Source: Nitrosomonas sp.
GTDB taxonomy: Bacteria; Pseudomonadota; Gammaproteobacteria; Burkholderiales; Nitrosomonadaceae
NCBI GenBank assembly: GCA_024281675.1
Contig: JAMXAG010000008.1
Location: 17,737-81,736 of the forward strand
Length of the DNA: 64,000 nucleotides
Reading direction: 5' to 3'
Below are positions 23,117 to 42,595 of the stretch, piece after piece (position 1 is the stretch's first letter; every line of letters begins with the position of its first letter). The position numbers were made by a program, and so were the translations under genes. Under the pieces are notes generated by a model. That model was not told the origin of the DNA. It did not search any database and was given only the letters and a program-made list of their open reading frames with translations.

Positions 23117-23177
23117 GATGATGGAGTAATAATTATTGAATAACTTGTGAGTATTTGAAGCATATGAGAGAACGGTA

Positions 23178-26449: not shown

Positions 26450-26800
26450 ATGACAACCATACAGATATTTGACCCTGCTTCATGTTGTAGCTCAGGCGTT
26501 TGCGGTTCCGACGTAGACCAAGAATTGGTCGGTTTTTCCGCTGATGTCGACTGGGCCAAACAACAAGGTGCTGCCATTGAACGCTTTAATCTGGCGCAAC
26601 AGCCGATGGCTTTTGCGGATAATTCTATAGTAAAAGCATTCTTGGAACGCTCCGGTGCTGAAGCGCTACCATTGATTCTCGTAGATGGAGAAGTGGCATT
26701 AGCAGGCCGCTATCCAAATCGCGGTGAACTGGCGCGCTGGACTGGCGCTACTGTGGAAGAAGAAACCGAAGAATCCAGTTGCTGCGGCGGCTGTTGTTAA
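26450..26800 (+). CDS. arsD: Arsenite metallochaperone ArsD
   Basis: FDPASCCSSGVCG, RFNLAQQP, LPLILVDGE, C-terminal CCGGCC. Confidence 0.93.
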   Translation: MTTIQIFDPASCCSSGVCGSDVDQELVGFSADVDWAKQQGAAIERFNLAQQPMAFADNSIVKAFLERSGAEALPLILVDGEVALAGRYPNRGELARWTGATVEEETEESSCCGGCC

Positions 26801-26820
26801 CGAAAACCTGAGCCAACCAG

Positions 26821-28602
26821 ATGACGCAACTCAAATTCCTCGATCAACCGCCCCGATTTCTGTTCTTTACTGGCAAGGGCGGCGTCGGCAAAACGTCGTT
26901 GGCTTGCGCTACCGCGATAACGCTGGCCGATGCCGGTCAGCGGGTATTATTGGTCAGCACCGATCCGGCTTCCAACGTGGGTCAGGTGTTCGGCACGACG
27001 ATTGGCAATAAGATTACAGCAATTACTGCTGTGCCTCGCTTAGCCGCTCTGGAAATCGACCCGCAAGCAGCCGCGCAAGTCTATCGTGATCGCATTGTCA
27101 ATCCGGTGCGCGGTGTATTGCCGGACACGGTGGTCAAAGGTATCGAAGAGCAACTATCCGGCGCGTGCACGACCGAAATTGCCGCTTTCGATGAATTTAC
27201 CGCTTTGTTGGTCGATTCGGCGCTGACAGCGGATTACGATCATATTATTTTTGACACCGCCCCCACCGGCCACACCATACGATTGCTGCAACTGCCCGGC
27301 GCATGGAGTGATTTTCTTGCGGAAGGCAAAGGCGATGCGTTATGTCTTGGTCCATTGGCAGGATTAGAAAAACAACGCGCACAATACAAAGCGGCGGTAG
27401 ATGCGCTCGCCGATTCGCAACGCACCCGGCTAGTATTGGTGGCTCGTGCACAGCAAACCACGTTACGCGAAGTAGCGCGGACACACGAAGAATTAGCAGC
27501 CATTGGATTGACGAAGCAATTCCTGGTCATTAATGGATTGTTTCCACAGGCAGAAACAGTACAGGATCCATTGGCAACTGCAATCTTCCAACGTGAACAG
27601 AACACTTTGGCGGCTATACCGAAAGTTCTCAATCAATTACCACGTGATCATATAGAGCTTAAACCGTTTAACCTAGTCGGATTGACAGCCTTGCGAAAAC
27701 TATTGATTGATGATTTGCCTGTCGAAGGCGACAGAGAATGTACACATAAGGCAATACCATTTCCCAGCTTATCCAGTTTGACTGATGAGATTGCCAAAGA
27801 CGGATGCGGTTTAATCATGCTGATGGGCAAAGGCGGAGTTGGCAAAACCACCCTTGCTGCGGCTATCGCGGTCAATCTTGCACATCGGGGCTTGCCAGTA
27901 CACCTAACCACCTCAGACCCGGCAGCGCATTTGAGTGAAACACTCAGCGGCGCTATGGATAACCTGCTGGTTGATCGGATTGATCCGCACATGGAAACCG
28001 AACGCTATCGGCAGCGTGTTCTGGAAACCAAGGGTTCGCGTCTGGATGCACAAGGCAGAGCATTGCTGGAAGAAGACTTACGTTCGCCTTGCACCGAAGA
28101 AATTGCGGTATTTCAAGCATTCTCGCGCATTATCCGCGAAGCGGGAAAGCAATTCGTGGTGATAGATACCGCACCCACCGGGCATACACTATTGTTACTG
28201 GATGCCACCGGCGCCTATCATCGCGAAGTTGCCAAACAAATGGATAGTCATTCCATCGCGCACTACACCACGCCGATGATGCAACTTCAGAATCCCAAGC
28301 AGACCAAAATATTGCTTGTCACATTAGCGGAAACGACACCGGTACTGGAAGCTGCCAACCTGCAAGCCGATTTACGCCGTGCTGGTATTGAGCCGTGGGC
28401 GTGGATCATCAATAACAGCATAGCTGCAACTACTGTGAAATCACCTTTATTGTGTCAGCGTGCCAATAATGAGCTTACTGATATCGAAACCGTATCGACC
28501 ATGCACGCAAAACGCTATGCCGTCGTGCCTTTGCTCAAAGAGGAACCTATTGGTGTTCATCGGTTATTGGAATTAACACAAGGTAGCGCGACTGAACATT
28601 AA
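26821..28602 (+). CDS. arsA: Arsenite-stimulated ATPase ArsA
   Basis: Two GKGGVGKT motifs, two DTAPTGH motifs, metal-binding Cys in GACTTE, LCLGP and SPCTEE. Confidence 0.95.
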   Translation: MTQLKFLDQPPRFLFFTGKGGVGKTSLACATAITLADAGQRVLLVSTDPASNVGQVFGTTIGNKITAITAVPRLAALEIDPQAAAQVYRDRIVNPVRGVLPDTVVKGIEEQLSGACTTEIAAFDEFTALLVDSALTADYDHIIFDTAPTGHTIRLLQLPGAWSDFLAEGKGDALCLGPLAGLEKQRAQYKAAVDALADSQRTRLVLVARAQQTTLREVARTHEELAAIGLTKQFLVINGLFPQAETVQDPLATAIFQREQNTLAAIPKVLNQLPRDHIELKPFNLVGLTALRKLLIDDLPVEGDRECTHKAIPFPSLSSLTDEIAKDGCGLIMLMGKGGVGKTTLAAAIAVNLAHRGLPVHLTTSDPAAHLSETLSGAMDNLLVDRIDPHMETERYRQRVLETKGSRLDAQGRALLEEDLRSPCTEEIAVFQAFSRIIREAGKQFVVIDTAPTGHTLLLLDATGAYHREVAKQMDSHSIAHYTTPMMQLQNPKQTKILLVTLAETTPVLEAANLQADLRRAGIEPWAWIINNSIAATTVKSPLLCQRANNELTDIETVSTMHAKRYAVVPLLKEEPIGVHRLLELTQGSATEH

Positions 28603-28721
28603 TCACTTGATCGCTCCTGAGATACACACAATCTATAAATAGTGCACATTTGTACTTAATGTCACAAATTTTGCACAATCGAAGTAGAAGCGGTTCGGTT
28701 ATGTTTCTAGGTCATTGATAA

Positions 28722-28767
28722 TGGTGCTGTTGAGAGGAGTCGAACCTCCGACCTACTGATTACGAAT
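28722..28767 (-). other. att site 1: 3' half of tRNA-Thr(CGT) (anticodon loop to CCA), no 5' half
   Basis: Reverse complement ATTCGTAATCAGTAGGTCGGAGGTTCGACTCCTCTCAACAGCACCA has anticodon CGT, T-arm and CCA; lies 155 bp from an integrase. Confidence 0.85.
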
Positions 28768-28885
28768 TCTAAAATATACTGTTTTACGTTGTTTTAATAT
28801 TTTTGAATATCCATTCATATCATTGTTTTGTATTGATTTTTACTGTTAAGTTGTTTTAAACTCCACCCCATGGTTTTACGCCCAC

Positions 28886-28905
28886 TGTCTACATAGTGTC
28901 TACAT
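28886..28905 (+). repeat. Tandem TGTCTACAT direct repeats (putative integrase arm-binding sites)
   Basis: tgtctacat-ag-tgtctacat just upstream of int; degenerate copy at 41868-41887. Confidence 0.5.
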
Positions 28906-28922
28906 GAAAGGAGATTAAAACA

Positions 28923-30185
28923 ATGACTACACCCCAAACGCCTCCGCAAAAAATCACAAAATCCTATGTAGACAAATTGTCTACACCAGAAACCGGACAA
29001 GCCTTTATCCGTGATACCGAACTCAAAGGTTTCGCCGTGCGTATTACTTCATCCGGCGCAAAATCATTTATTCTCGAAAAGAGAATTGATGGCAAAGTGA
29101 AGCGATTAACGTTAGGCCGGTATCCTGAGCTAACTGTCGAACAAGCCAGAAAGGAAGCGCATAAATTACTTGGTCACATCGCTGTTGGCCGCAATCCCGC
29201 TGCCGAGAAAAAGCAGGAAGCGCTACAAGGCACCACATTAAAACAAGCCTTCGATGATTTCGTAAAGACGCGAAAAAATCTCAAGGAACGAACGCTCTAC
29301 GATTACCGGCGAGTAATGGCCGTCGTTTTTGCCGACTGGCAGGATAAAACGATAACCGGTATCAATAAGGACATGGTCAGCAAGCGCCATAACAAAATTG
29401 GGGCGGAAAGAGGGGAAGCCTATGCCAACCTGGCTATGCGCTTTTTACGTGCGCTGTTTAATTTTGCCATTGCACAATATGAGGATGGCAATGGACATTC
29501 AATATTACGGGAGAATCCCGTTATGCGTCTGACGCAAACCCGCGCATGGTATCGGGTAGATCGTCGCCAAACCGCTATCAAACCTCATCAACTTTCTCCT
29601 TGGTATGAAGCCGTGATGTCGCTTAAGCAAGATCAAATATCTAACCAATCTGCAATGGTAGCCGATTATCTTTTATTTCTTTTATTTACAGGTCTAAGAC
29701 GACAAGAAGCGGCAACGCTAAAATGGTCGAATATAGATTTGGATGATCGCTCTTTCACATTGACCGATACCAAGAATCGGGAACCTTTGACATTGCCGCT
29801 AACTGATTTTGTCTTCGATCTACTGCAAAGCAGAAAAGCCGTGACCGATTCTGAATATGTTTTTGCTGGGGATGGTAAAAAGGGATACTTGATTGAACCT
29901 CGCCGCCAAGTGCAAAAGGTCATTCAATTATCCGAAGTATCGTTCACACTACACGATCTACGCCGCACTTTTATCACGATTGCCGAAAGTATCGATATAT
30001 CCGCTTATGCACTTAAACGGCTGGTAAATCATAAAATGACCAACGATGTCACTGCTGGCTATATTATCAGCGATGTCGAACGCTTGCGAAAACCCATGCA
30101 ACAAATATCCTCCCAATTGCTTCGATATTTCAAAATCAAAGATGACAAGAAGATATTGCCATTTCAAAAGCACCAAAGCGCTTGA
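28923..30185 (+). CDS. Tyrosine recombinase/integrase with N-terminal arm-binding domain
   Basis: RDTELKGFAVR...RLTLGRYP arm domain; TGLRRQEA, LHDLRRTF, LVNHK...TAGY catalytic residues. Confidence 0.95.
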   Translation: MTTPQTPPQKITKSYVDKLSTPETGQAFIRDTELKGFAVRITSSGAKSFILEKRIDGKVKRLTLGRYPELTVEQARKEAHKLLGHIAVGRNPAAEKKQEALQGTTLKQAFDDFVKTRKNLKERTLYDYRRVMAVVFADWQDKTITGINKDMVSKRHNKIGAERGEAYANLAMRFLRALFNFAIAQYEDGNGHSILRENPVMRLTQTRAWYRVDRRQTAIKPHQLSPWYEAVMSLKQDQISNQSAMVADYLLFLLFTGLRRQEAATLKWSNIDLDDRSFTLTDTKNREPLTLPLTDFVFDLLQSRKAVTDSEYVFAGDGKKGYLIEPRRQVQKVIQLSEVSFTLHDLRRTFITIAESIDISAYALKRLVNHKMTNDVTAGYIISDVERLRKPMQQISSQLLRYFKIKDDKKILPFQKHQSA

Positions 30186-30209
30186 ATATAACATTTTATA
30201 ACTTATAAT

Positions 30210-30476
30210 ATGCACAATCCGTACAATTTATTGATCCGGCCGCAAGCCAAAAAGAAATTGCAAAGCCTGCCGAGAACGGATCGATTCAGGATTGCCGAAA
30301 AACTGGAACAGCTAGGTCGTAATCCTGATGACAGCTCACTGGATATCAAGAAATTGGAAGGTGAACCTTATTTTCGGTTAAGAGTTGGTAATTGGCGCAT
30401 TATTTTTGAACGGCACGATGCCGTTAGGATCATTGCCATTGAGAAAATTAAACCGCGTGGAGATGCATACAAATGA
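30210..30476 (+). CDS. RelE/ParE-family toxin
   Basis: AKKKLQSLP...IKKLEGEPYFRLRVGNWRIIF; 4-bp overlap with the antitoxin gene. Confidence 0.88.
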   Translation: MHNPYNLLIRPQAKKKLQSLPRTDRFRIAEKLEQLGRNPDDSSLDIKKLEGEPYFRLRVGNWRIIFERHDAVRIIAIEKIKPRGDAYK

Positions 30477-30805
30477 CACTGCAAAAAATAAAATCCATTC
30501 AAGGCAAAGACGAATATGTCCTGTTACCGATGGCGGTTTACCGTGCCTTGAAAGATCAGATCGAAAAGGAATTGGCAGCTTGCGAAGCAAATCAGAATGA
30601 CGAACAAACCTATGAACCGTTTGTGCTTGAGGACTATGTTGATAATCCCGTGGCGCTTGCGCGAATCAAAGCCGGTATTACACAAGAGCAATTAGCTCAG
30701 CGCCTAGGCGTCAGTCAAGCTTATGTTAGCCAAATTGAACGCCGCGACACCGTAACTAATAAGATGCTTGAACAAGTGCATTCGGCTATTCAGAGTAGTG
30801 ACTAA
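30473..30805 (+). CDS. XRE/HTH antitoxin
   Basis: ARIKAGITQEQLAQRLGVSQAYVSQIER. Confidence 0.88.
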   Translation: MTLQKIKSIQGKDEYVLLPMAVYRALKDQIEKELAACEANQNDEQTYEPFVLEDYVDNPVALARIKAGITQEQLAQRLGVSQAYVSQIERRDTVTNKMLEQVHSAIQSSD

Positions 30806-30854
30806 TACTCATCTTATTTTGTTCAATTTTCTTTGCCACCGCGAAGCGGGCTTG

Positions 30855-31029
30855 CCCTTGACAGGCTGCCACCGCTCAAGAAAATAACCAGGCAGGAAGG
30901 ATTGAAGCGCAATTACTTCTACGCACAAACTGACCACGCAAAACCGCAGTGACCTTGTTCCCCACCCGGCCACAAAACCTCAATCTTTCATACTAAACCA
31001 CACTTCGAGCGGCGGCAGCCTGTCAAGGG
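30855..31029. repeat. 23-bp inverted repeat pair enclosing 129 bp
   Basis: cccttgacaggctgccaccgctc (30855-30877) vs gagcggcggcagcctgtcaaggg (31007-31029), 22/23 complementary. Confidence 0.8.
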
Positions 31030-31125
31030 TGGCAAGTCAATCCGGCAAATCAAATACGAATTTTCTAAAGTGTTCAGATTATTGAACCGTCATTTGGCAT
31101 TATCTATCACTACGGAAAACTCACT

Positions 31126-31791
31126 ATGCATGTAGAAAATAGCCCTGACTTCAAAACTGTCTGGCAATTAGCGCATAACTGGATAGGCGCTGACCTGGAC
31201 AAGACCAATTTAAGCGCAATCTCACCTGAATTAAAAACAGCTATTCATCGCTTGATGCAGGCAATGTCAAGCATGGAAATTACCGGCAGATGGAAAGGGT
31301 TGCGAATCTTTATGGATAATTCCTTTCTCTCTTCACTTTTTGATCTTTATCACACCTTTAAATTTTATCAATGCTTCAGAAAAAACAAATTCGATAAAGA
31401 CTATCTAGATAACCTTTACATAAAGCGTAATGAAGTTTTAAGATGGTGCGAAAATATCATTTATTTAGATCCTCCACCCTGCTGGGCATTAAAAATAATA
31501 TCGTCTAAAAATGACATATCTGCTGAAGTTGAAGATACTGATGATGAGAACAATAGCTGGTACGATAAAATAACGAAGCGACGCAGACAAAGAATAGTCT
31601 GTATCGAATTAGCAAAGCAGCTCTGGGAGCAATATCCGGGCATAAGTTACGAAGAAATGCATAAGCATCCCACTATGCAACAATTGGGCTATTCATCTAC
31701 TTTTACCTTCAAATCTTTTAAGAATTTGGTTCGATTCGTTGCATCGGAACCCGCCCAGCTACCTGGAGCACCTGCAAAAACAAAGGAATAG
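31126..31791 (+). CDS. Hypothetical protein upstream of the excisionase
   Basis: 221-aa AT-rich ORF; no family recognised. Confidence 0.6.
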   Translation: MHVENSPDFKTVWQLAHNWIGADLDKTNLSAISPELKTAIHRLMQAMSSMEITGRWKGLRIFMDNSFLSSLFDLYHTFKFYQCFRKNKFDKDYLDNLYIKRNEVLRWCENIIYLDPPPCWALKIISSKNDISAEVEDTDDENNSWYDKITKRRRQRIVCIELAKQLWEQYPGISYEEMHKHPTMQQLGYSSTFTFKSFKNLVRFVASEPAQLPGAPAKTKE

Positions 31792-31904
31792 AAAATCATA
31801 ATTATTCCTAAAAAAATAAATATATTTCTATTTTTCTAGCATCTTTTTTTACACCATCATTTAATGCAAATTGATCTCGTATTCACTAACTTACGAGGTC
31901 AATC

Positions 31905-32099
31905 ATGCAAAACCCTTTACTCACGACTAAACAAGCCGCACAAATCTTAGGCGTCAGCACCGCATTCCTGGAGCGAGACCGCTGGGCTGGAGCGCGGGTG
32001 CCTTTCGTCAAAATAGGCTCACGGGCAGTTCGCTATCGCCATAGCGATCTGCTCGCCTATATTGAATCCTGTCTCTGTCAATCCACCAGTCAGTACTGA
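31905..32099 (+). CDS. AlpA/excisionase-like HTH protein
   Basis: [14 protein letters not shown]...[22 protein letters not shown]; 64 aa. Confidence 0.85.
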
Positions 32100-32107
32100 G
32101 GTGTATC

Positions 32108-33784
32108 ATGCATACGTCAGTACGTGATAGCCAAGAGCTACTTACTCCCAGCGAACAGATTGCAGAAAGTGTTTTAAGTTTACTGGATGAACCGAATAAC
32201 AGCGACAAGCGATGGCGTGCGCCCATATTCCAGAGACTCCCCAAACGCTTTGCTGAAAACGCTGCCTACGACTATAAAGAAACCTACATCTTTGAAGGCA
32301 GGCGCCATGCCAATCTCTTTCTACTCCAAACCTATGGGAAATCCAACAAACACAGCATTCCGCTCAATGCTAACGATGATGACCTGAAAGCGATATCTAA
32401 GCGTATCGTGACAGAAATCAAGGATTTTAGTAATTTCCTGCTCAATCGAACCGACAAAATAGCCAGCCTGCTGCACTATGCGCAAAAATATGACGTGAAT
32501 CTACCTTCTTTTGATAATCCAAATATCACAGAGAAAGGTATTTATACCCGCTTAACCGATGAAAACTGGTGGCTGCGCAGACTACGTAAAACCCATGCCA
32601 GGAATCTGGAACAAGAAGCGATTCGAACCGGTTTCGTGCATCAGCGTAAAGGCAAGTACGTCAGCGATGAAACCCTGCAACGGCGTAGAGAACAGAAAAA
32701 ACGCAACCAGCGCATCCTTGAAGGATTGCTGATGATCAATGAGCTGGATGAAGGCTTCACACTCAGCGAACTGGCAGAACATAGCTTAGCTAATCCGCAT
32801 GTACGACGCAGTGAATTGATGGTACGCCTATTCGGATTTGAATTCATTGCCAACGAATTGGGACATGTTGGCGAATTCTATACCATCACTTGTCCATCCA
32901 AAATGCATGCCCGGCATTCCGGCAGCGGTGAACGTAATTCTAAATATGACGGCACCACACCGGAACAGGCGCAAAAGTATCTCAATACGGTCTGGGCAAG
33001 AATTCGCGCAAAACTGAAGCGGGATCATCTAGAAATTTATGGTTTCCGAATTGCCGAACCACAACATGATGGTACACCGCACTGGCACATATTGTTATTC
33101 ATGCCACCCGAACAAACTGCAAAGGTTCAGGCTATCATTCGGCATTACGCCCTGCAAACCGATGGCGATGAACCGGGCGCAAATGAACACCGTTTCAACA
33201 CAACCCCCATTGATAAAAGCAAAGGTACCGCCGTCAGTTATGTCGCGAAATACATTTCAAAAAACATCGACGGCCACGGCCTTGAACAGGATATTGACGG
33301 CAGCCCGATACAAGAAGCGGCTGAACGGGTGGAAGCCTGGGCTTCAACTTGGAGCATTCGACAATTCCAACAAATTGGCGGCGCACCTGTCAGCATTTGG
33401 CGGGAACTCAGAAGAATCCACGATGCACCTGAAGGCATCCTTGAACAAGCACGAAAAGCAGCCGACCAGAAAGAATGGTGGAAATTCATTCAGTTGATGG
33501 GCGGTATAACTTCTAAACGAAAAGACAATCCCATCAAGTTACTGAAAATAGAATCTAAAGAGCTAGGAAAGTATGGCGATCCGATAGGACAAAAAATCTG
33601 TGGCGTAAAAACTGATTCCATCCAGCTACCAACCCGTTTGCATCAATGGCGTATTGAAAAATGTGCAGTGAACACAGAACAGACTGAACGGCGAAGCGCA
33701 AAGCGCCCGAGTAGGAGCGGCAGCGACCGCGAGGTCGCATTTGCGGCGCAGCCGCCTTGGAGTTCTGTCAATAACTGTACGTAA
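32108..33784 (+). CDS. Rolling-circle replication endonuclease (phage P2 gpA-like, HUH)
   Basis: [27 protein letters not shown] (HUH), [12 protein letters not shown] (YxxxY), [18 protein letters not shown]; ends PWSSVNNCT. Confidence 0.92.
33723..33778 (+). other. Putative rolling-circle origin/nick site within the rep 3' end
   Basis: Two GC hairpins (gcgacc-gcga-ggtcgc; gcggc-gca-gccgc) followed by CCTTGGAGTTCTGTCAATAACTG, resembling the P2-family ori as recalled. Confidence 0.6.
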
Positions 33785-34247
33785 GATAATAGTTTCGTCA
33801 ATCCATGATCAAATATGTACTATTTTTAATCTAATTGTATAGAGTCTCTGAAATAGTGAGTGTTACTGAGTTTGATATGGATGTTGAATCCTTAAATCAA
33901 ACTTAATAATAAGTGGTACCAATGTCATGTACTAACAACCTAATTATCAAACACAAAGAAGGGTAACTCAATTTTTCCCAAGAATTTGAAAATTTCTATA
34001 AATTCTGAAAGATTATGGGAGTATCCAGAAATATATTTTATTGAATTGAAGTGACAAACAATTTGGAAGCACTGATCAATCAGAATCGCCGTGTTCTAAT
34101 GTTAAGAACTTTGTTGATGAAACGATAGAACAAACCGTTTGAGTTATGCGATTAAATATCCGATGTATAGTCAATATCGAACCAGTAATGAATTACGCTA
34201 GTAAGCGATTAGATTAGTTTACGTGATTTACATTCTGAGGATATGAT

Positions 34248-34345
34248 TAAAAAAGAAACGGGAACCGAAGTTCCCATTTCATATCGGTGGGCTTTTAAGC
34301 CCTTGTTGCCGACAGTTCCCCACCATCGGAATAACTGATACAGTT
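34248..34345 (-). ncRNA. tracrRNA
   Basis: Anti-repeat 34305-34340, nexus hairpin gggct-taaa-agccc, UUCG-capped gggaac/gttccc hairpin and U-tract on the minus strand. Confidence 0.88.
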
Positions 34346-34348
34346 TAA

Positions 34349-34377
34349 ATTCTATCAAACAAAGCAAAAAGGGACAA
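34349..34377 (-). promoter_or_regulatory. Sigma70-like promoter for tracrRNA
   Basis: Minus strand TTGTCC-17 nt-TAGAAT (with extended TG), overlapping the cas9 5' leader. Confidence 0.55.
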
Positions 34378-36804
34378 GCGGATATGGTTCTGAAATATAG
34401 GCTTGGCTTAGACGTAGGCACTGCATCAGTTGGTGCTGCGGCGGTATCTCTAGATAAAGATGGGCAACCGGATACACTGATCTGGCATCACGTGCGAATT
34501 TTCAATGAACCGTTAGAGAATGCACAAGGCACACTGGTTTCGAAGAAATCTGGACGGCGAAAAGCGCGGATGCAGCGTCGCCAGATTGACCGCCGTGCTT
34601 CACGCTTGCGGCGCATTGCAAATCTCGCCAGTTTGCTCGGACTAAAACGCGAAGAAATCGCACCCGATAATGGCAGCACTCTACCCTATCTGCGCGCTCA
34701 AGCTGCAACCGAGCACGTCGAGCTTGATGATTTATTGCGCATCTTCCTACGGCTATCCAAACGACGCGGGTACAAGGGTGAATTCAAAGCCAAGAAAAAA
34801 GGCGAGGTCGCAGAAGGTTCCAGCGAACTCAGCCTTGCCATGAGAACCCTTGCTACAGAATGCGCCATTTTGTTCAAGGATGAAAACGATACTGGCATCA
34901 CCATTGGGCAATATTTGCTGCATCGCATGGAAAGTGGCTTACCAACCAAGCTCAAAGTAAAAGAAATCAGCGATGAACCTAAGAATAAAAAAAATGAGGG
35001 CGCGAACACACCAAAGAATTTATACGCACTTCGCAAAATGATCGAGTATGAATTCAACACCATCTGGGATACGCAAGCCAAACATCATGACATCCTCAAC
35101 GGAACTCACGAAGACAAGCCGATACGCGAACACTTCCATGAAGCGCTGTTCTACCAGCGCCCGCTAAAATCGGCTACCGACTTGGTTGCGCGATGCGAGC
35201 TTGAACCAACGCTATCACGTGCACCACGTGCGCAAATGGCCTTTCAACGCTTTCGCATTGAAAAGACGCTGGCAGATTTACGTTGGGGCGCTGGTAAACG
35301 CGCCGAACCAATCACATCGCATCAAAAGCAAGTCATCAGAAACTTGCTTGACCACAATGACAAAGTGAAATTCGATGACATCTATGAAGCGCTAGAAAAT
35401 GCAGATTGTGTAAAACCACAAGGCAAAGGACTAAACCTTGACCGTGCCAGTCGCGAAGAGCTGCTTGGGAACAGTACGCTGGCAGCACTACGCAAACTGG
35501 ATAAACATAGTACAAAAAATCATCCAGAACGCGCTGCCAATCTTGAACAAGCCTTCTGTGCTCTGGATGAAAAAACACAAATCGCTGTCATCAATTTTCT
35601 GGCAGAACTCGGCTCACCTGAACAGCTAGATGATCCAGAGTGGCATACCAGCTTCGTCAAGCGCGATGGCAAGCCGCGCCAATTCAGCGAGCCTTTGATC
35701 GTCTTCATCAACTGTATTAAGGAACACGATAATTTCGACCGGTTAAGCAAAATGGATTTCGATGGTGGGCGAGCTTCTTATTCCGTCAAAGCCTTAAACA
35801 ATCTTGCTGACTGGCTAGAAGAGCCAAACTGGCCGGGCGATTGGCAAGACGATATGAAACGCATGGATGAAGAAGCTGCCATTCGCGTGTGTTACCCGAA
35901 ATCGCTTAACTGCGAAATCAAACGCATGGAGAAACTGCCCGTACCTGAATCTACCGGTAATGCTGTGGTGGATGGTTCGCTTCGTCAGATCCGCTGGACA
36001 GTGAACAAGATGATTGATGAACTTGGCGCTCCACCTAATGAGATCGTGGTGGAAATGGCACGCGAGATGAGCTTAGGCATCAGCCGCCGCAATGAGCGCG
36101 AAAGTGATAACAGCGCACAACAACGTGCGCGCAAACATGCTGAAAGTGTAATCCGAAATTCCGGTGGAGTACCAACACCATCCAAGATTCGTCGTTATCT
36201 TTTGCTACAAGAACAGGATACTCATTGCCCTTATTGCGAAAACAAAATTGGGTTGCCGGATGCTCTATCTGGCGCAACGGAATATGAACACATTATTCCG
36301 AAATCGCTTACGCAAGTTGGCATGAAGCGTTCTGAAATTGTGTTGGCGCATCACGCCTGCAATCAGGAGAAAGATGATCGCACGCCATGGGAAGCATGGG
36401 GGAACAGCCCGCGTTGGGTGCATATTGAGAAGGCAGCAGAGCGCTTTGAGAAGAAAAAACAATTTCGCAAAGCCAAGCTGCTACGCCTTAAAGACTTTGA
36501 GCGTGAAGTATTGACCGATGAATCTGTGAGTGGTTTTGCAGACCGTCAGTTTCATCAAACCTCATGGATAGCAAAAGAAGCTGCACAATGGCTGGAATGC
36601 CTATGCCCTCATAAAGTTTCTGTTTCGCGTGGTGAACTAACATCCATGCTACGCCGCAGTTGGAAACTGGAAACCGTAATCCCAGAGGTTCGCATCGAAA
36701 ACAGCCTGCCCCTGCTGGATACCGAAGGAAAGCTGATTGAGCAAAATGATTTTGACAGACTCAAGAAATACTGAGGTATGTTGTCAAAAATGGAGTCCAT
36801 AGGT

Positions 36805-37710
36805 TTAAGCAGCGAGTAGATTTGCATAGTACTGCTGCGAAAATTGTGCAGGCGATAAATAACCTAATTTTTCTTGCTTGCGCTGTCGGTTATAGAATAT
36901 TTCGATATATTCGGTAATCTCCTGAATGGCTTGTTGCCGTGTTTTGAATCTCCGATGATGCACCAGTTCGGTTTTAAGTATCCCCCAGAAGCTTTCCATC
37001 GGCGCATTATCATAGCAGTCGCCCTTGCGGCTCATGGAGGCGATCATGCCAAATTGTTGCAATAAATTCCGGTAATCGTGTGCACAGTATTGACTACCTT
37101 GATCTGAATGAGCAATGAGCCCCTTATCCGGATGTTTATTTGCAGTTGCGCGAAATAATGCCTGTATAACCAGGCTCTTTGTCATTTTCTCATTCATGGC
37201 ATAGCCCACCAGTTCGCCATTAAATAGATCTTTTATTCCAGCCAAGTACAACCAGCCCTCATCTGTAGGAATATAAGTGATGTCACTGACCCACACTTTA
37301 CCAGGTGCATTAACAGAAAATTCCCGTTTCAGAATATTGGGCGCAACCGGTAAATTATGTTTAGAATCGGTCGTCACCTTGAATTTTAGCTTTTGCTTAC
37401 AACGCAAACCCAATTTCCTGCGCAATGTTCGAACACGGTATGGTGTGGCTTGTACTCCGTGATCCGCCAAATCATGATGCAAGCGCTTTGCACTGTAGGT
37501 CTCTCGTGTACGTTGGTGTGCGGCCAGTATTTCTATTTCCAGCCTTCTATTCTCCCGCTTACGTTTACAAAGCGGGCGCGTTCTTTGAGCATGAAAGCCG
37601 CTCTCGGAAACATTCAATACTCGACACATGAGCCCAATCGAATAGCTTCGTCGCATCGATTCAATCAAACCGTATCTCACCGCGACTCCTTGGCGAAATA
37701 CGTCGCACAC
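36805..37710 (-). CDS. IS3 transposase OrfB (DDE integrase core)
   Basis: WVSDITYI, HSDQGSQY, SRKGDCYDNAPMESFW, YIEIFYNRQR. Confidence 0.93.
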   Translation of the reverse strand: MCDVFRQGVAVRYGLIESMRRSYSIGLMCRVLNVSESGFHAQRTRPLCKRKRENRRLEIEILAAHQRTRETYSAKRLHHDLADHGVQATPYRVRTLRRKLGLRCKQKLKFKVTTDSKHNLPVAPNILKREFSVNAPGKVWVSDITYIPTDEGWLYLAGIKDLFNGELVGYAMNEKMTKSLVIQALFRATANKHPDKGLIAHSDQGSQYCAHDYRNLLQQFGMIASMSRKGDCYDNAPMESFWGILKTELVHHRRFKTRQQAIQEITEYIEIFYNRQRKQEKLGYLSPAQFSQQYYANLLAA

Positions 37711-37976
37711 TTTTTTATAAAATCACGCTCCATCTTCACTTCTGCTAATTCACGTTTAACTCTGGATAGCTCTAACTCAAGTTCAGTCAGCGGCTTATGA
37801 TGCTTGCCTACTGTAATGAGTTCTCCTCGTTTGTCAGCATAAACCCAATTCTTTAGTGTCCCCTGGGGTAACGACAGCCGTTTTGCTGCTTCAACCAGAG
37901 TCAATCCGCTTTCTTTGAAAAATTTAACTGATTCCTTCCGAAATTCCTGACTATATTGTGTGCGGGGTAATTCCAT
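37677..37976 (-). CDS. IS3 transposase OrfA (HTH)
   Basis: YSQEFRKESVK...AAKRLSLPQGTLKNW...LKRELAEVKMERDFIKK; -1 overlap with OrfB. Confidence 0.9.
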   Translation of the reverse strand: MELPRTQYSQEFRKESVKFFKESGLTLVEAAKRLSLPQGTLKNWVYADKRGELITVGKHHKPLTELELELSRVKRELAEVKMERDFIKKCATYFAKESR

Positions 37977-39063
37977 TTTCATCCTCCATTTCATGTCTTC
38001 ATTTTATGAAACTTCGGACTCCTTGAAAATCAGCATACCTCATACCTTGAAGGACATCCGGTCAGGAGTGAAGACCGCAAAGCAAACCCCGACTTCGATT
38101 TCAACCGTCGCCCAGACAAACGTCTCGATCATCGCCATCACCTGATTGATGCGATTACACTGGCATTGACCTCGCGCAGTTTGTTTCAGCAAATGGCGAA
38201 GAAATACAAAACTGCCGCCGAAAAGATGCAAACGTGTGAGGGAGAAACACAGGAAGAACGCGAACGCCGCATCAAGAATGAAACACGGCTGCGACTTGAA
38301 GTGCCTGAACCGCCTTTTCGCAATGTGCGTGCTGCTGCACTTGATGCCATGCGCGAGTGCAATATTTCTATAAAACCGGATCGCTACCCTGATGGTGCAC
38401 TGTTCAAGGATACAGCCTACGGAATAGCGCAGCGAGATGGTGAAGACAGGTTACGACTTACTCTACGCCAGCCCGTCGCTGGATTGGGCAAGGTTCAAGG
38501 AAAAACAAATTTAGAGGCCGCGCGTAAAGCCATTGCAAAAATCATCAGCAATGACGTGCAGTGTATTGTTACCGACACATTTGAGGATCGCATTGCTAGG
38601 GGCATGGAAGCTGGAGATGCACTTGCTTTGCCTATCCGGCATCCGCTCTATGATAAACCAATTCGCAAAGTGCGTTGCTTTGAAACCTATGCAGAAGATG
38701 CACAACCCATTGGCTTCAACAGCCGCCGCGGTGAGCACCGCAAATATCTTATCAATGCAGGGTATGCCTATTTGGAGCTTTACACCGACAGATCAAGAGA
38801 ACCCCGACTTGTGAAAATCCGTGATGCGATGCGAAAAAAAGGAACGCCTACTCCCCAAAATGCAAAGTGGATTTACAAAGGAGATGTTGTAAAGGATTCT
38901 AAAGATAATAAACTCTATCGAGTGGGCTACTTCAAGTCTGAAGGAGTTATTGCTCTCATTCCAATTTTCGACCCACGCTCATTCGACAAAATTTCAGAAA
39001 GTAATGCTGGAAAGAAAAAAATTGCGTTTACTCAAGCTGCAAAACGTTTAACACTGATTAACG

Positions 39064-40011
39064 ATGTCTGAACAGCGCATCCTCGTCATCGAAAATCCCG
39101 CCCACCTGCGCATAGACACGGGGCGGTTGAAAATTGAGCGTGACGGTTTTGACCATGTATTTGTCTCGCCTGATGATGTGGCAGTACTTTGCCTCGAACA
39201 CCACACAGTCACACTCTCAGTCGCCGTCTTGCGTGCACTTGCCGAAGCCGGAGCAGCAGTGATGGTCACCGATACGCGACACATGCCTTGCGCCATGCAG
39301 ATTCCGCTCGCCGCCACAGGCTTGGATGCGGGTAGGCTGCGTCAGCAAATTGCACTGGATACCAGCGAGAAACGTGGCGAGTTATGGCAACAATTGATCT
39401 CCACAAAGTTATCTATGCAGGCTCACGCCTTGCGCGGGCTGCAACGTAAGGGAGCATTGCGCCTGGAGCGTCTCGCAGCACAAGTGCAACATAACGACAA
39501 AAGCAACGCGGAAGGTCAAGGTGCAAAACACTATTGGAATAACCTGTTCCCAGAGACTTTTAAGCGCAGCAAGGAAGGTGCAGAAGACCCACTGAACGTT
39601 CGCCTCAACTATGGCTATGCTGTGCTGCGCGCCATGATTGCCCGCTCGTTGGTTTCAGCCGGACTCAATGGCACATTGGGCTTGGGACATCGCAATGCGG
39701 GCAATGCATTCAACTTGGCGGACGACTTCATTGAGCCGTATCGCTTTCTGGTGGATGTGCATCTGGCTGATGATGCCGATACCTGGAGTGAAGCGCCAGA
39801 ATTTGACAGCCGCGCCAAGCGCTATTTGCTTGGATTCGTCAAACGTCCTGTGCGCATGGCGGGGCAGGATATGCGGCTGCACGCCGCAATTGATACGAGT
39901 ATCGTCAGCTTCGTGCGTATTCTTGAAGGCAAAGGCAAAAAGCTGGTGCTTCCCGAAGGACTGGTTATTGATAGGGATAATAAGGAATGGCAATCAACGG
40001 ATGGCGCGTAA
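39064..40011 (+). CDS. cas1: Type II CRISPR-associated endonuclease Cas1
   Basis: EGQGAKHYW, NVRLNYGYAVLRA, LGLGHRN, NLADDFIEPYR; overlaps the cas9 stop. Confidence 0.95.
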   Translation: MSEQRILVIENPAHLRIDTGRLKIERDGFDHVFVSPDDVAVLCLEHHTVTLSVAVLRALAEAGAAVMVTDTRHMPCAMQIPLAATGLDAGRLRQQIALDTSEKRGELWQQLISTKLSMQAHALRGLQRKGALRLERLAAQVQHNDKSNAEGQGAKHYWNNLFPETFKRSKEGAEDPLNVRLNYGYAVLRAMIARSLVSAGLNGTLGLGHRNAGNAFNLADDFIEPYRFLVDVHLADDADTWSEAPEFDSRAKRYLLGFVKRPVRMAGQDMRLHAAIDTSIVSFVRILEGKGKKLVLPEGLVIDRDNKEWQSTDGA

Positions 40012-40319
40012 TGTGGGTGATTGCAGTTTATGATTGCCCGATGATAGAACGTGAGGAACGGCGCGATTACACGCTGTTCCGCAAAAGCCTGTTGCAAGAA
40101 AATTTCTTCCAGTTGCAAAACTCGCTCTATGTGCGCCACTTCCCTACCATGGCGGTTGCCGAAGCCACGATACAGCGCATCCGTTTAGGCATCCCAGCAG
40201 GTGCACAAGTGGCATTTTTCCTCGTAACTGATAAACAGTACGCGATGACTAGAGAGTTTTTTGGTAATCGACCCACAAAGAAAAAGCCCAATTTGCCAGA
40301 GCAAATCGAGCTTTTTTAA
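39987..40319 (+). CDS. cas2: CRISPR-associated Cas2
   Basis: MWVIAVYDCP...FRKSLLQENFFQLQNSLYVR...VTDKQY; no csn2 or cas4 follows, so type II-C. Confidence 0.93.
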   Translation: MAINGWRVMWVIAVYDCPMIEREERRDYTLFRKSLLQENFFQLQNSLYVRHFPTMAVAEATIQRIRLGIPAGAQVAFFLVTDKQYAMTREFFGNRPTKKKPNLPEQIELF

Positions 40320-40358
40320 AATTATTTAATTTTAAAAACAACTGACTATATACAATCT

Positions 40359-41516
40359 AGTTTATCAGGTATTCCGATGGTGGGGTGTCGGAACTCGTTG
40401 AGTATTATGAAGCCACACATTGGTAGTTTATCAGGTATTCCGATGGTGGGGTGTCGGAACAAATAATCCTGCCTATATGAAAAATGTTTAAGTTTATCAG
40501 GTATTCCGATGGTGGGGTGTCGGAACGAAAAAATGCGCCGATATCACCAACTCTAAAGTTTATCAGGTATTCCGATGGTGGGGTGTCGGAACAATAGCCG
40601 ATAAGGTAATACCGGCTATTGAAGTTTATCAGGTATTCCGATGGTGGGGTGTCGGAACATGAATCGAGAGATGAAGCGGTATGCTGGAAGTTTATCAGGT
40701 ATTCCGATGGTGGGGTGTCGGAACCTGTCTTTCGCTGTTATTTCAATCCGTGTTAGTTTATCAGGTATTCCGATGGTGGGGTGTCGGAACGAATAACAAT
40801 TGGTATGTCTGCACCCTCAGAGTTTATCAGGTATTCCGATGGTGGGGTGTCGGAACGCGAGCGTGATGTTAGCTACGGCATCGCCGAGTTTATCAGGTAT
40901 TCCGATGGTGGGGTGTCGGAACATTTAAACCCCCATGAGTCTGAGTGAAAATAGTTTATCAGGTATTCCGATGGTGGGGTGTCGGAACCTGTAACCCTAG
41001 ATGGTAAAAGTGTATCTTAGTTTATCAGGTATTCCGATGGTGGGGTGTCGGAACGTAGAGGGTGAGGTAGAACTACAGGAAAATAGTTTATCAGGTATTC
41101 CGATGGTGGGGTGTCGGAACTACCTTCGCAAGCATCCTTTTTGTTCTCATAGTTTATCAGGTATTCCGATGGTGGGGTGTCGGAACCACTAACTGTAGCT
41201 GACTCAGGCGACGTGTAGTTTATCAGGTATTCCGATGGTGGGGTGTCGGAACACACATTATTGGCTACTCTTAAACTTGAAGAGTTTATCAGGTATTCCG
41301 ATGGTGGGGTGTCGGAACATAGTTTCGTGCGTTTCAACCGCTTGAATCAGTTTATCAGGTATTCCGATGGTGGGGTGTCGGAACACCAAGCTATGACTGG
41401 TCATGCCCGGTGAGAGTTTATCAGGTATTCCGATGGTGGGGTGTCGGAACCATCGCTAGCCGTTAAATCCTCCTCCTCGAAGTTTATCAGGTATTCCGAT
41501 GGTGGGGTGTCGGAAC
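40359..41516 (-). CRISPR. CRISPR array: 18 identical 36-bp repeats, 17 spacers of 30 bp
   Basis: Plus-strand repeat agtttatcaggtattccgatggtggggtgtcggaac with an exact 66-bp period. Predicted sense strand is minus (GTTCCGAC...TGATAAACT), from tracrRNA pairing and the embedded extended -10. Confidence 0.99.
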
Positions 41517-41756
41517 AATACCGTCGATGGAATAAATAGCCGTTCGCAGCGCTCGGAATTAATAGTGAGAGATTTCTAGAGGTTCCAGATTTTATCGGAA
41601 AGATGAAGTACCAAATAAAGAAAGCGCAAATTAGTACCAAATAGGGCGATTTGTTATAGAGATTACTTATCTTTTTCGTATGTTCAGTCTATTATCTACA
41701 TTATGCCTACATCTAAATGTTATAAGATTATTATCTTATGCAACCTATAGATTCTA

Positions 41757-41802
41757 TGGTGCTGTTGGGCAGAATCGAACTGCTGACCTACAGATTATGA
41801 AT
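41757..41802 (-). other. att site 2: degenerate tRNA 3' fragment related to att1
   Basis: Reverse complement ATTCATAATCTGTAGGTCAGCAGTTCGATTCTGCCCAACAGCACCA; followed by a copy of the TGTCTACAT arm repeat at 41868. Confidence 0.75.
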
Positions 41803-41931
41803 TTGACTGACTTAATAGTCAATTTCTAAACCCCAGATTTGTTTATCCGTATTTTATTTTGATCTGCTGTCTACATTGCGTCTGCATGAATAATTATTAT
41901 TTGTCAATCAATGCATAACTTATTGTTTTTA

Positions 41932-41977
41932 TGGTGCCGACACCAAGAATCGAACTCGGGACCTTCTGATTACAAAA
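41932..41977 (-). other. att site 3: 3' half of a tRNA-Thr(TGT)-like gene
   Basis: Reverse complement TTTTGTAATCAGAAGGTCCCGAGTTCGATTCTTGGTGTCGGCACCA; intact T-arm and CCA; no 5' half. Confidence 0.75.
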
Positions 41978-42004
41978 CTTATTTACAAATTACAATTACT
42001 TATA

Positions 42005-42175: not shown

Positions 42176-42595
42176 TTATTCTTCCCAAGGATTGATGACG
42201 AGCACTCCGGCAGCGATAAAAGGTGCAGTATCTCGCGTCGCTATGGTGAATCTATGTATGACCGCGATTGCGGCAATCTGACCGTCTGCCACAGAGATGA
42301 GGCGACCGTTAGTCCTAGCTCGACCGACTACGGAGGCATATGCTATCGCAGCCTGTTGGTCGAATGATAGTATGCGCGACCCAAAAAGCCTCTCCATCAG
42401 TTTCCTCAATGCGATATCAAGTCCTTCTTTACGCTTGCCATCTGGCAGGATTTCAATGCCGACCAGCAATTCGGAAAGGCTTGTTGCTGTCAGATACAGT
42501 GTCTCTGCCGTCTGCCGATCAAGCCAAGCTTGAACAGCGGGATTGCCATTGAGTTTCATTGGCTCGGATATGACATTCGTATCCAGAACGATCAT
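42176..42595 (-). CDS. vapC: VapC/FitB PIN-domain toxin
   Basis: MIVLDTNVISE, ELLVG, ADGQIAAIA, TRDTAPF. Confidence 0.93.
   Translation of the reverse strand: MIVLDTNVISEPMKLNGNPAVQAWLDRQTAETLYLTATSLSELLVGIEILPDGKRKEGLDIALRKLMERLFGSRILSFDQQAAIAYASVVGRARTNGRLISVADGQIAAIAVIHRFTIATRDTAPFIAAGVLVINPWEE

Follow-up and report, generated by a model that had tools for sequence, protein, structure and literature searches.

Organization of the CRISPR-Cas locus

The window, that is, the whole 64-kb stretch of DNA that was analysed, derives from an activated-sludge Nitrosomonas, a wastewater ammonia oxidiser, and holds a type II-C CRISPR-Cas locus with a divergent tracrRNA, cas9, cas1, cas2 and an array of 18 repeats. 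An insertion sequence (IS) of the IS3 family interrupts cas9. The features are as follows.

34249..34343, minus strand: tracrRNA of about 95 nt, with an anti-repeat, one internal hairpin and an intrinsic terminator (predicted ends)
34384..36771, plus strand: 5' part of cas9, codons 1-796, with RuvC-I (D10), REC lobe, RuvC-II (E557) and HNH (H636, N660)
36769-36771: left copy of the TAC target-site duplication (codon Y796)
36772..38042, minus strand: IS3-family insertion sequence, 1271 bp, with imperfect terminal inverted repeats and TG...CA ends
37710-36805, minus strand: IS orfB
37716-37710, minus strand: IS slippery heptamer A6G
37994-37677, minus strand: IS orfA
38043-38045: right copy of the TAC target-site duplication
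38046..39071, plus strand: 3' part of cas9, codons 797-1137, with the RuvC-III motif DHRHHLIDA (H828, D831) and then the C-terminal part
39064..40011, plus strand: cas1, 315 aa (Pfam Cas_Cas1; NCBIfam cas1_NMENI, type II, 229.7 bits)
39987..40319, plus strand: cas2, 110 aa (Pfam CRISPR_Cas2; TIGR01573)
40320..40358: A+T-rich stretch from cas2 to the first repeat, with the motif AAAACAAC(C/T)GA(C/T)T
40359..41516, minus strand: CRISPR array, 18 identical 36-nt repeats and 17 spacers of 30 nt
40461..40490: spacer 2, perfect match in a secreted glycosidase-like gene beside purC-purK-purE
40527..40556: spacer 3, perfect 30/30 match on another long contig outside the array, likewise at host depth
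40659..40688: spacer 5, phage-derived, 30/30 in two IMG/VR contigs (L012/L014 and L013)
41055..41084: spacer 11, same phage group, portal gene, 29/30 in L013 and 27/30 in L012/L014

The tracrRNA is oriented divergently from cas9, and its anti-repeat pairs with the CRISPR repeat through a bulged duplex (cofold of -78.7 kcal/mol). A promoter-like extended -10 site (TTGTCC-17-TAGAAT) is present at 34377-34349, and the terminator stem at 34280-34255 is followed by T6. The tracrRNA is kept upstream of cas9 in two orthologous loci, L007 and L010, and comparison of the window with these loci shows that the arms of the terminator hairpin have changed in a compensatory way (GGGAAC/GTTCCC versus GGGCAC/GTGCCC). 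The start of cas1 overlaps the stop of cas9. The motif downstream of cas2 is also common to the window and both orthologous loci, and the stretch that carries it is the probable acquisition (leader) end of the array. All of the repeats are the same 36-mer (18/18), as an earlier note on this DNA had observed, and in crRNA sense they read GTTCCGACACCCCACCATCGGAATACCTGATAAACT if the array strand follows from that of the tracrRNA. Transcription probably proceeds towards cas2 from extended -10 boxes embedded in the repeats (TGATAAACT); internal promoters are found within other II-C arrays (PMC10309648). Repeat-spacer-repeat contigs of 96 nt were present in two metatranscriptome runs, X57 (40827-40922, spacer 8) and X64 (41217-41311, spacer 14). 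The tracrRNA, cas1, cas2 and the array all look intact.

Disruption of cas9

The 5' part of cas9 matches Pfam Cas9_a and HNH_4 as well as NCBIfam TIGR01865 (349.5 bits), and the 3' part, which is in frame with it once the IS is removed, matches positions 723-977 of the latter model. The reading frame at the insertion is AAA TAC TGA, the left junction being ...CTCAAGAAATAC|TGAGGTATG... and the right one ...CATACCTCA|TACCTTGAAGG.... Hence the earlier description of a 1271-bp IS3 element with a TAC duplication, whose bases TGA provide the stop after Y796, is correct base for base. Its placement between HNH and RuvC-III is true of the motifs, as the insertion point is past HNH (Pfam 615-669) and 28 codons ahead of DHRHHLIDA, yet the site lies inside the Pfam RuvC_III envelope (716-907). 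A public protein identical to the 5' part (P0047) is encoded on 4 contigs, all of which end inside the IS.

Joining 34384-36771 to 38046-39071 yields 1137 aa and a single terminal stop, with no further stops or frameshifts. The product aligns collinearly with intact orthologues, and none of its catalytic residues is lost; D10, E557, H636, N660, H828 and D831 are invariant columns in an alignment with 13 intact orthologues, across which the junction peptide LKKY|LEGHPVRSE is conserved. The apparently intact 1137-aa nuclease predicted earlier is thereby upheld, and exactly this protein exists as P0121. By its position, as in the solved type II-C Cas9s, the C-terminal part is assigned to putative WED and PAM-interacting domains. 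The dN/dS ratios across both halves against L007 and L010 are 0.06-0.11 (0.105-0.109 for the 3' part against orthologues and equally low in the 5' part), which indicates purifying selection on both halves.

The TGA of the IS ends translation 28 codons before the RuvC-III His/Asp, with loss of the whole C-terminal third. The frame of the 3' part contains a TGA at 38007 and offers its first start codon only at 38166 (TTG), beyond the catalytic motif; hence the 3' part with its motif is not translatable as such. The truncated Cas9 would be unable to recognise a PAM or to cut DNA, and interference would thus be off. Adaptation is probably off as well, since Cas9 is needed for it in type II-A systems and cas1-cas2 are downstream of the insertion. 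In one study of type II-A adaptation, Cas9 was required, and the absence of cleavage unmasked self-derived spacers (PMC4335292).

The inserted element

The IS proteins match Pfam HTH_Tnp_1, rve, rve_2 and HTH_21 and NCBIfam transpos_IS3 (339.7 bits), and the imperfect terminal inverted repeats are TGAGGTATG..GGAGTCC. Typical of the IS3 family are the length of about 1.25 kb, the TG...CA inverted repeats, the 3-bp duplication, the slippery site A AAA AAG and the position of orfB (DDE/rve) in the -1 frame relative to orfA (HTH), and from its IS911 features the element presumably belongs to the IS3/IS911 group. It differs in that the nearest annotated copies, on Burkholderia and Paraburkholderia plasmids, have only ~65% nucleotide identity over ~74% of its length; one of them is annotated as IS3-like ISBvi4 and the other as IS3/IS911 family. 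Judged from these distances, it is probably an unnamed element. Elements of the IS3/IS911 type move by copy-out-paste-in, in which the donor copy stays, and precise excision is unlikely.

Only a single copy lies within the window. The IS is nevertheless multicopy with intact ends: the ratio of IS depth to host depth in metagenomes, where further hosts of this IS may contribute, is ~5-14, with ~13-14 in the IS-carrying runs X3 and X5 and ~5-8 in the IS-free runs X7, X12, X14 and X16. Many distinct IS flanks occur as loose contig ends in the metagenomes, and IS transcripts are present in metatranscriptomes. A neutral IS burst would account equally well for the higher apparent copy number in the IS-carrying lineage.

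Intact allele in sister lineages

The public contigs L096 (11 samples), L097 and L098 encode P0121. Over 10.8 kb their identity with the window is 100% once the IS and one TAC are set aside, a single TAC being present there. The search for IS-free alleles in sisters that had been proposed earlier was thus successful, with no other difference over 10.8 kb. This also gives the claim of recent inactivation a stronger basis than the identical repeats from which it had been argued. The intact allele comes from wastewater, activated-sludge, bioreactor and aquaculture metagenomes, is commoner than the IS allele in public metagenomes and in some cases shares a study with it. The empty-site joint (36771 to 38046, with 1274 bases skipped) is found in runs X1, X7, X9, X12, X14, X16, X19 and X50.

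Positions 8001-28000 of the window show no differences in the IS-carrying run X5. The IS-free runs X7 and X12 have in common one SNP (22935) and one patch (8447-8790); in the IS-free X14 the SNP is present, and the patch only at part of the depth and span. The two lineages are close sisters, with a single SNP and a single recombination patch separating them in 20 kb of flanking chromosome. The IS allele has been found in three studies (2021-2024), hence it is not ephemeral.

As a whole, the sequences make it highly probable that the locus carries a very recent, still segregating IS knock-out of a presumably working but uncharacterised type II-C Cas9. A multicopy, IS911-like element of the IS3 family would have transposed into codon 796/797 of cas9 very recently, and the IS allele would be a loss-of-function polymorphism in a clonal sub-lineage rather than a decaying pseudogene or a programmed switch. 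Such a knock-out is a natural instance of an already known event, and the kind of system is not new. What is new is that the repaired gene is a real allele in public data, together with the sister lineages, two spacers that match apparently own DNA outside the array, two that match a tailed phage, and the seemingly intact remainder of the system.

Related systems

The locus resembles type II-C systems with solved structures in its minimal cas9-cas1-cas2 operon without csn2 or cas4, a Cas9 of ~1.1 thousand aa with RuvC-I/II/III and HNH, 36-nt repeats and 30-nt spacers, a long bulged repeat:anti-repeat tracrRNA duplex, an NMENI-type Cas1, a repeat end like an extended -10 box and an array read towards its variable end. 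It differs in having the tracrRNA upstream of and divergent from cas9, and in Cas9 itself: the best PDB match is partial (E 5.5e-29), and the best alignments end at about residue 763-769, leaving the C-terminal third including the RuvC-III motif unaligned. The PDB entries concerned are presumably GeoCas9 (9ar4/8uza) and Neisseria meningitidis Cas9 (6jdq/6kc8). A literature search found no paper on a Nitrosomonas Cas9, and this Nitrosomonadales clade appears to have no characterised member. The earlier view of an uncharacterised II-C orthologue agrees with these distant structures, and with the nearest proteins besides P0121 being MAG proteins of 84% identity.

Orthologues occur in MAGs of Nitrosomonadales, Gallionella, Nitrotoga and Methylotenera, for example P0005 on GCA_016177795.1 (L007) and P0019 (L010), with 54-86% identity among the 120 matches listed. 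The 1137-aa P0001 and P0002 are 84% identical to the repaired Cas9 and the Methylotenera protein P0097 58%. Length class and operon are shared and the repeat and tracrRNA are near-identical, whereas the spacers are unrelated and the genomic contexts differ, which implies a mobile three-gene module that changes its location. No IS disrupts any of the orthologues inspected.

Self-targeting spacers with disabled cas genes are known from Lactobacillus acidophilus NCFM and Pectobacterium atrosepticum (reviewed in PMC6990116), and an IS insertion in a type II-C locus from Flavobacterium psychrophilum CN46 (PMC10309648). The first two share with the present locus perfect spacer-chromosome matches and a loss-of-function lesion in the effector, and the third the landing of an IS in a II-C locus. 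Unlike in those cases, the null and wild-type alleles here segregate in near-identical natural populations of many treatment plants, the lesion is one clean insertion in cas9 itself, and self-targeting is only a candidate cause.

Spacers against phages and against apparently own DNA

Spacer 5 targets the last part of an ORF of 302 aa, which has no family match and lies between the portal and major head genes, and PHROGs identifies terminase, portal and major head protein on the phage contigs. These phage-derived spacers imply that the CRISPR system did work.

The earlier suggestion that the spacers be compared with the host genome led to two of them, spacers 2 and 3, each matching 30/30 outside the array at host depth. 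In X3 and X5 the target of spacer 2 is on 47-kb contigs outside the array, and the spacer is also matched in X7 and X12 and in the loci L005 and L006; 5685 nt of the 47-kb contig are collinear with L006, and the target protein has a weak Pfam GH42 match. The target contigs of spacer 3 are 28-35 kb long with depths of 13.3 and 19.8 (host ~13-16 and 18-20); translation of the 90 visible nt in four frames gave no protein, and viral contigs gave no match to the spacer. Both targets appear to be in the same genome as the array, on the basis of equal contig depth and a single candidate pur locus. Samples in which the intact allele dominates contain them too.

Of the three spacers closest to the probable acquisition end, two are the self-matching ones. 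The autoimmunity proposed earlier, a candidate driver, thus gains two possible self-matches, one of them in the chromosomal purEKC neighbourhood. The PAM-side bases A1, C3, C6 and T8, common to both phage protospacers, are absent from both self-matches (TTGCCGTG and TAACATCT); hence the self-matches may be harmless, although four sites are too few to decide. One newer spacer lies above both, hence the self-matching spacers had been tolerated for some time.

Persistence of the null allele

The most likely driver, which can be put forward only tentatively, is relief from the cost of self-targeting, since two of the three newest-end spacers perfectly match what is apparently own DNA. Escape from self-targeting through cas mutation or deletion is established (PMC6990116).

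It is also possible, if somewhat doubtful, that cas9 suffered a neutral hit during an IS expansion in a clonal sub-lineage and was fixed by drift or hitch-hiking, the self-matches being harmless without a usable PAM. The contrast in IS depth between the runs, the many different IS flanks, the PAM-side bases unlike those of the two phage protospacers and the newer overlying spacer all fit this explanation. However, metagenome IS depth may include other hosts, perfect self-matches for 2 of 17 spacers, both so near the acquisition end, are unusual, and the allele recurs in three studies.

Selection of the null allele for letting in beneficial mobile DNA, for instance a plasmid, a prophage or an island that the array would otherwise keep out, is unlikely. 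Loss of CRISPR in order to gain foreign DNA is an established general trade-off, and the locus is in a mobile-DNA hotspot beside an integrase-AlpA-GPA element, tRNA-end-like repeats and a PIN gene. Against this, no spacer matches were found in the whole 64-kb window or in phage and plasmid collections, nothing foreign is matched except a tailed phage contig of lytic appearance, and the regions compared contain no gained element specific to the IS-carrying lineage.

A reversible switch, in which precise excision restores cas9 when immunity is needed, is very improbable. Both states do occur, at times in one study, and differ at the locus by the IS and 3 bp only. But copy-out-paste-in keeps the donor copy, and the states are also marked by the linked SNP and the patch about 14-28 kb away, as expected of two separate lineages and not of one population flipping. 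Of the reversibility suggested earlier, the part that stands is that co-occurring sister cells form a reservoir of intact cas9; true excision needs host-mediated recombination across the 3-bp repeat and should be very rare.

Misplacement of the IS inside cas9 during assembly is hardly credible even for a multicopy element that breaks short-read contigs, as the target-site duplication is present on both sides, independent contigs from X2, X3, X5 and X8 cross the left cas9-IS junction 27-28 nt into the IS, other contigs from X2, X3 and X5 cross the right one by 28-30 nt, and independent public contigs with either an IS junction or the precise empty site argue against both an artefact and a chance pattern.

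The split cas9 and its insertion element

The CRISPR-Cas locus of the window is a complete type II system in which the effector gene is split by an IS3-family element with a TAC duplication, and the earlier note had described each of these items correctly. The locus has the Cas9 catalytic motifs, cas1-cas2 module, tracrRNA and array with foreign spacers that define type II-C systems; its repeat-embedded promoters are candidates, and RNA-guided, PAM-dependent DNA cleavage is predicted. Its genes and elements are as follows.

~34343-34249, minus strand: predicted tracrRNA, with anti-repeat, small hairpin, strong intrinsic terminator and extended -10 promoter-like site
34384-36774, plus strand: 5' ORF of cas9, 796 aa, its TGA stop codon formed by the first three bases of the 1271-bp element
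36772-38042, ORFs on the minus strand: IS3-family element of 1271 bp, recognised by terminal inverted repeats, TAC duplication and Pfam/NCBIfam matches
37994-37677, minus strand: orfA (HTH_Tnp_1)
37710-36805, minus strand: orfB (rve, rve_2, HTH_21)
39064-40011, plus strand: cas1, type II NMENI class, its start overlapping the cas9 stop
39987-40319, plus strand: cas2, with the array directly after it

The insert likewise has every defining feature of the IS3 family, which include an orfA/orfB pair with a slippery site (the two overlap in the -1 frame at the A AAA AAG heptamer, A6G, 37716-37710), imperfect terminal inverted repeats (TGAGGTATGTTGTCAAAAATGGAGTCC and TGAGGTATGCTGATTTTCAAGGAGTCC) with TG...CA ends, and a target duplication seen as the TAC direct repeat at 36769-71 and 38043-45. 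It scores 339.7 bits against NCBIfam transpos_IS3 (cutoff 160). BLAST finds a single copy within the window, and metagenome depth indicates a multicopy element. Contigs of the IS are present in two metatranscriptome runs that also hold array contigs. A copy variant with a 96-nt deletion (37850-37947) occurs at about one per genome in several runs and in both of the lineages described below.

The stop codon of the 796-aa ORF is supplied by the IS, as had been read from the sequence, and joining 34384-36771 to 38046-39071 restores 1137 codons with one terminal stop and no other stop or frameshift. The insertion had been placed between HNH and RuvC-III; this holds, HNH (Pfam 615-669) preceding it and the DHRHHLIDA motif following 28 codons further on, with the refinement that it falls inside the Pfam RuvC_III envelope (716-907). 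The repaired protein matches Pfam Cas9_a, HNH_4 and RuvC_III, and NCBIfam TIGR01865 recognises both parts of the split gene, the 5' one at 349.5 bits. A search of 5.8 billion proteins returned 486 relatives, the best being 1137-1142 aa long, 84% identical, and from Nitrosomonadales and related MAGs. In a 14-sequence alignment the repaired protein is collinear with its 13 relatives, the junction LKKY|LEGHPVRSE is conserved sequence, and D10, E557, H636, N660, H828 and D831 are invariant columns, so that the catalytic motifs are intact in the repaired or wild-type allele of this gene, which is split in the window. The repaired protein is thus, by its sequence, a bona fide Cas9. Compared with two orthologous genes, codons 1-796 have a dN/dS of 0.06-0.10 and codons 797-1137 one of 0.105-0.109; both halves have been strongly constrained in their evolution, and no decay is seen in the orphaned 3' half.

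The environmental clade of this Cas9 has hundreds of database members, none of them with a solved structure and none characterised in the literature that could be searched. The closest solved structures are distant (best E 5.5e-29), their best alignments ending at about residue 763-769, and an AlphaFold2 model built from the 14-sequence alignment is poor (pLDDT 54.9, pTM 0.29).

The 796-aa product has neither the catalytic residues of RuvC-III nor any of the C-terminal third, in which solved type II-C Cas9s have their WED and PAM-interacting domains. In frame with the 3' part, a TGA occurs at 38007 and the first possible start, a TTG, at 38166, beyond the catalytic motif; the 3' ORF thus has no start ahead of the RuvC-III motif, and rescue as a split Cas9 is excluded. 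Interference should be abolished. Adaptation has probably been lost as well, because cas1-cas2 lie downstream in the same operon and, by analogy, Cas9 is needed for adaptation in type II-A (PMC4335292). The rest of the system (cas1, cas2, tracrRNA and array) appears intact.

tracrRNA, adaptation genes and array

The locus holds no csn2 or cas4 and its adaptation module is cas1 and cas2 only, hence the assignment to subtype II-C. Upstream of cas9 come the tracrRNA and then a GPA replication gene. The anti-repeat (~34343-34301) pairs with the repeat around a bulge, with a duplex energy of -78.7 kcal/mol, and the same predicted tracrRNA stands upstream of the orthologous cas9 in two other CRISPR loci (L007 and L010), with a compensatory change in the terminator stem. 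Rfam at gathering thresholds gave no match within the window.

The array consists of 18 repeats of 36 nt and 17 spacers of 30 nt, and the repeats are all identical, as stated in the earlier note. The tracrRNA strand sets the crRNA strand as minus, and therefore the array is read towards cas2. Read as crRNA, the repeat has TGATAAACT at its end (TGATACACT in L010), a sequence similar to an extended -10 box and a candidate repeat-embedded promoter; other II-C arrays have repeat-embedded promoters and are transcribed towards the variable end (PMC10309648). From this direction and from a short motif beside the first repeat that is conserved between loci, the cas2-proximal end is taken as the probable acquisition end. 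Contigs of 96 nt (repeat-spacer-repeat) cover spacers 8 and 14 in two metatranscriptome runs. Logan contigs collapse the array, and the runs hold repeat-only words at most.

The intact allele and its sister lineages

The existence of an intact allele is the main new result. The search of public data for IS-free alleles, which the earlier note had proposed, yielded both contigs that join 36771 to 38046 and, by exact-sequence look-up, a database protein (P0121) identical to the repaired 1137-aa Cas9. Placed on the window, the public contigs with this joint skip exactly 1274 bases, which is the IS plus one TAC. The empty-site joint was found in 8 public sequencing runs (X1, X7, X9, X12, X14, X16, X19, X50), contigs extending cas9 27-28 nt into the IS were found in 4 (X2, X3, X5, X8), and 2 runs fell in neither class. 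Two studies hold both states in separate runs, namely P1 (X1 vs X2) and P4 (X9 vs X8). The samples come from activated sludge, wastewater, bioreactors and aquaculture.

The contigs encoding P0121, which are L096 (11 samples), L097 and L098, have one TAC only at the empty site and match the window at 100% identity, with zero substitutions in 10.8 kb (28738-36771, 38042-40394 and 41481-41956). Over the flanking 20 kb (8001-28000) no difference separates an IS+ run from the window, whereas the IS-free runs X7 and X12 differ from it by one common SNP (22935 A>G) and a dense patch at 8447-8790; IS-free X14 has the SNP, with the patch at part of the depth and span only. Given this near-identity over the 10.8 kb and the flank, the two cas9 states belong to a pair of sister lineages, very closely related, within a single strain complex. 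Lineages so close imply that the insertion is very recent, and the claim of a recent inactivation is borne out by occupied and empty alleles without other substitution over 10.8 kb. The linked SNP argues for two lineages rather than a flip-flop within one. Recent mobility of the IS is shown by finding the site both occupied and empty in DNA that is otherwise the same. By its LeuRS the strain complex belongs to Nitrosomonas, the nearest species representatives being 85% identical to it at the amino-acid level.

The patch at 8447-8790 has ~21-27 substitutions between the IS+ and IS-free lineages, lies within a di-haem cytochrome c peroxidase-like gene (7927-9858), and looks like a recombination tract. 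Another stretch, 16135-16650, reaches 3-6 times the depth of the host in metagenomes, where it exists in several variants, and may be a multicopy or common element.

No new principle is involved: disruption of cas genes by an IS is well documented, and so are self-targeting spacers in systems that have been disabled. Insertions of IS elements into II-C loci are described in PMC10309648, and disabled cas genes beside self-targeting spacers in PMC6990116. The locus is of value as a natural and well-controlled polymorphism in a nitrifier of environmental importance, and as a defined wild-type set of Cas9, tracrRNA and repeat for PAM testing. The IS+ and IS-free forms of this key wastewater nitrifier differ essentially by one IS, and form a natural before-and-after pair, a Nitrosomonas strain complex with and without working Cas9 immunity (activity predicted) in many plants. 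With so clean an allele pair, the cost and benefit of CRISPR, autoimmunity and IS bursts are therefore testable directly in public time series. P0121, the tracrRNA and the repeat define a ready-to-test guide RNA for a divergent II-C Cas9 clade.

Targets of the spacers

Two spacers match tailed-phage contigs of IMG/VR that carry terminase, portal and major head genes (spacer 5, 30/30; spacer 11, 29/30), hence the system has served against phage. No match was found for any of the 17 spacers in the window outside the array or in GenBank phages and PLSDB plasmids, nor for spacers 1, 2, 3, 8 and 16 in viral contigs. Extending the matched phage contig gave no further spacer matches, and none of the spacers of three orthologous arrays (L007, L010, L011) matches phage or window.

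Unexpectedly, spacers 2 and 3, the second and third from the probable acquisition end, match 30/30 on long non-array contigs of the same metagenomes at host depth. For example, the spacer 2 and spacer 3 contigs have depths of 13.4 and 13.3 in X3 (host 12.6-16.1) and of 18.8 and 19.8 in X5 (host 18.3-20). In assembled metagenomes that were scanned, the spacer 2 protospacer falls within the gene of a 366-374-aa protein that has a signal peptide and matches GH42 weakly; this gene adjoins purC-purK-purE, hisG-hisD and sodB. A 47-kb sludge contig is collinear with this pur locus over 5.7 kb and is the sole high-depth contig aligning there. The spacer 3 target lies on a 28-35-kb contig, where peptides from 4 reading frames of the 90 visible bases match no protein, and it may be intergenic. 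Because of the perfect matches at host depth and the single high-depth pur contig, the targets of spacers 2 and 3 are probable self-targets, with protospacers that probably lie in the same genome as the array. Among species-representative genomes neither the target nor the array of spacer 2 was matched, and therefore the source species' own array is not in that set.

Locus L006 was considered as a proxy for the host chromosome and rejected as a relative only (~96.5% identical to the sludge contig, mostly in groundwater/biofilter runs); it served for gene context only. The chromosomal target gene of spacer 2 is also seen in an RNA-run contig of the bioreactor metatranscriptome X64.

The phage contig L013 encodes (3897-5921) a protein of 674 aa that has Ig-like domains of the Big_7 and CARDB types and the C-terminal part of which is distantly similar to the spacer 2 target protein (25% identity, E 6e-6). 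Capture of spacer 2 from this matched phage was rejected, the Ig-domain protein being too distant, and another phage with a closer copy might be the source. Phage and host appear to have a surface-glycan-acting domain family in common.

Origin of the null allele

The leading, though tentative, explanation is that the null allele is an escape from self-targeting, a course that is well established for cas mutation or loss (PMC6990116). It leads because two perfect self-matches stand among the newest spacers. However, the same protospacers are present in samples dominated by the intact allele, and a newer spacer overlies both self-matching spacers. The PAM-side flanks are TTGCCGTGCC for spacer 2, TAACATCTTG for spacer 3, AGCGGCTTTA for spacer 5 and AACATCATAT for spacer 11, four sites being too few to define a PAM. 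The self-match flanks TTGCCGTG and TAACATCT are without the four positions common to the phage flanks AGCGGCTT and AACATCAT, which also counts against escape from self-targeting, within the limits of four sites that cannot define a PAM.

Almost as likely is that cas9 was a neutral hit in an expansion of the IS. The ratio of IS to host depth is ~13-14 in IS+ runs against ~5-8 in IS-free runs, as such an expansion would give, but other hosts of the IS may add to that depth. The earlier suggestion that immunity was lost by selection to admit mobile DNA has no specific support.

The loss had also been thought reversible. True excision is unlikely, given an IS3-type element with a 3-bp duplication, and reversal would realistically come about when the co-occurring intact lineage replaces the IS+ one or recombines with it.

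It is improbable that the sister lineage with intact cas9 carries and tolerates the same two self-matching spacers. If so, a type II-C anti-CRISPR not yet recognised would be implied or, alternatively, an ammonia oxidiser that naturally turns Cas9 on its own DNA without lethal effect, and the IS allele would be a second, independent way out. The candidate seat of such an anti-CRISPR is the integrase-HTH-AlpA-GPA element abutting the tracrRNA, including its 221-aa ORF without family match.

Neighbourhood of the locus

Three direct copies of a 47-48-nt sequence (28721-28768, 41756-41803, 41931-41978; 81% and 67% alike) read on the minus strand like a tRNA T-arm, acceptor stem and CCA, and ARAGORN reports no full tRNA there. 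They bracket the whole CRISPR-Cas locus and a small integrative element (28923-33784, between the first two copies) with a tyrosine integrase, a ParE-like/HTH pair, the 221-aa ORF, AlpA and a P2-GPA-type nickase. In metagenomes the depth of the first copy is 3-4 times that of the host, and it occurs with other flanks as well. A P4-like island may carry the cas locus as cargo or lie next to it; orthologous cas modules occupy quite different contexts.

Just past the array and the tRNA-end-like repeats lies a PIN-domain gene (42176-42595, minus strand), which likely codes for the toxin in a toxin-antitoxin pair. At 3360-4913, a long way from the CRISPR locus, a HerA-like helicase gene (Pfam HerA_C, E 3e-221) may be part of another defence or repair module.
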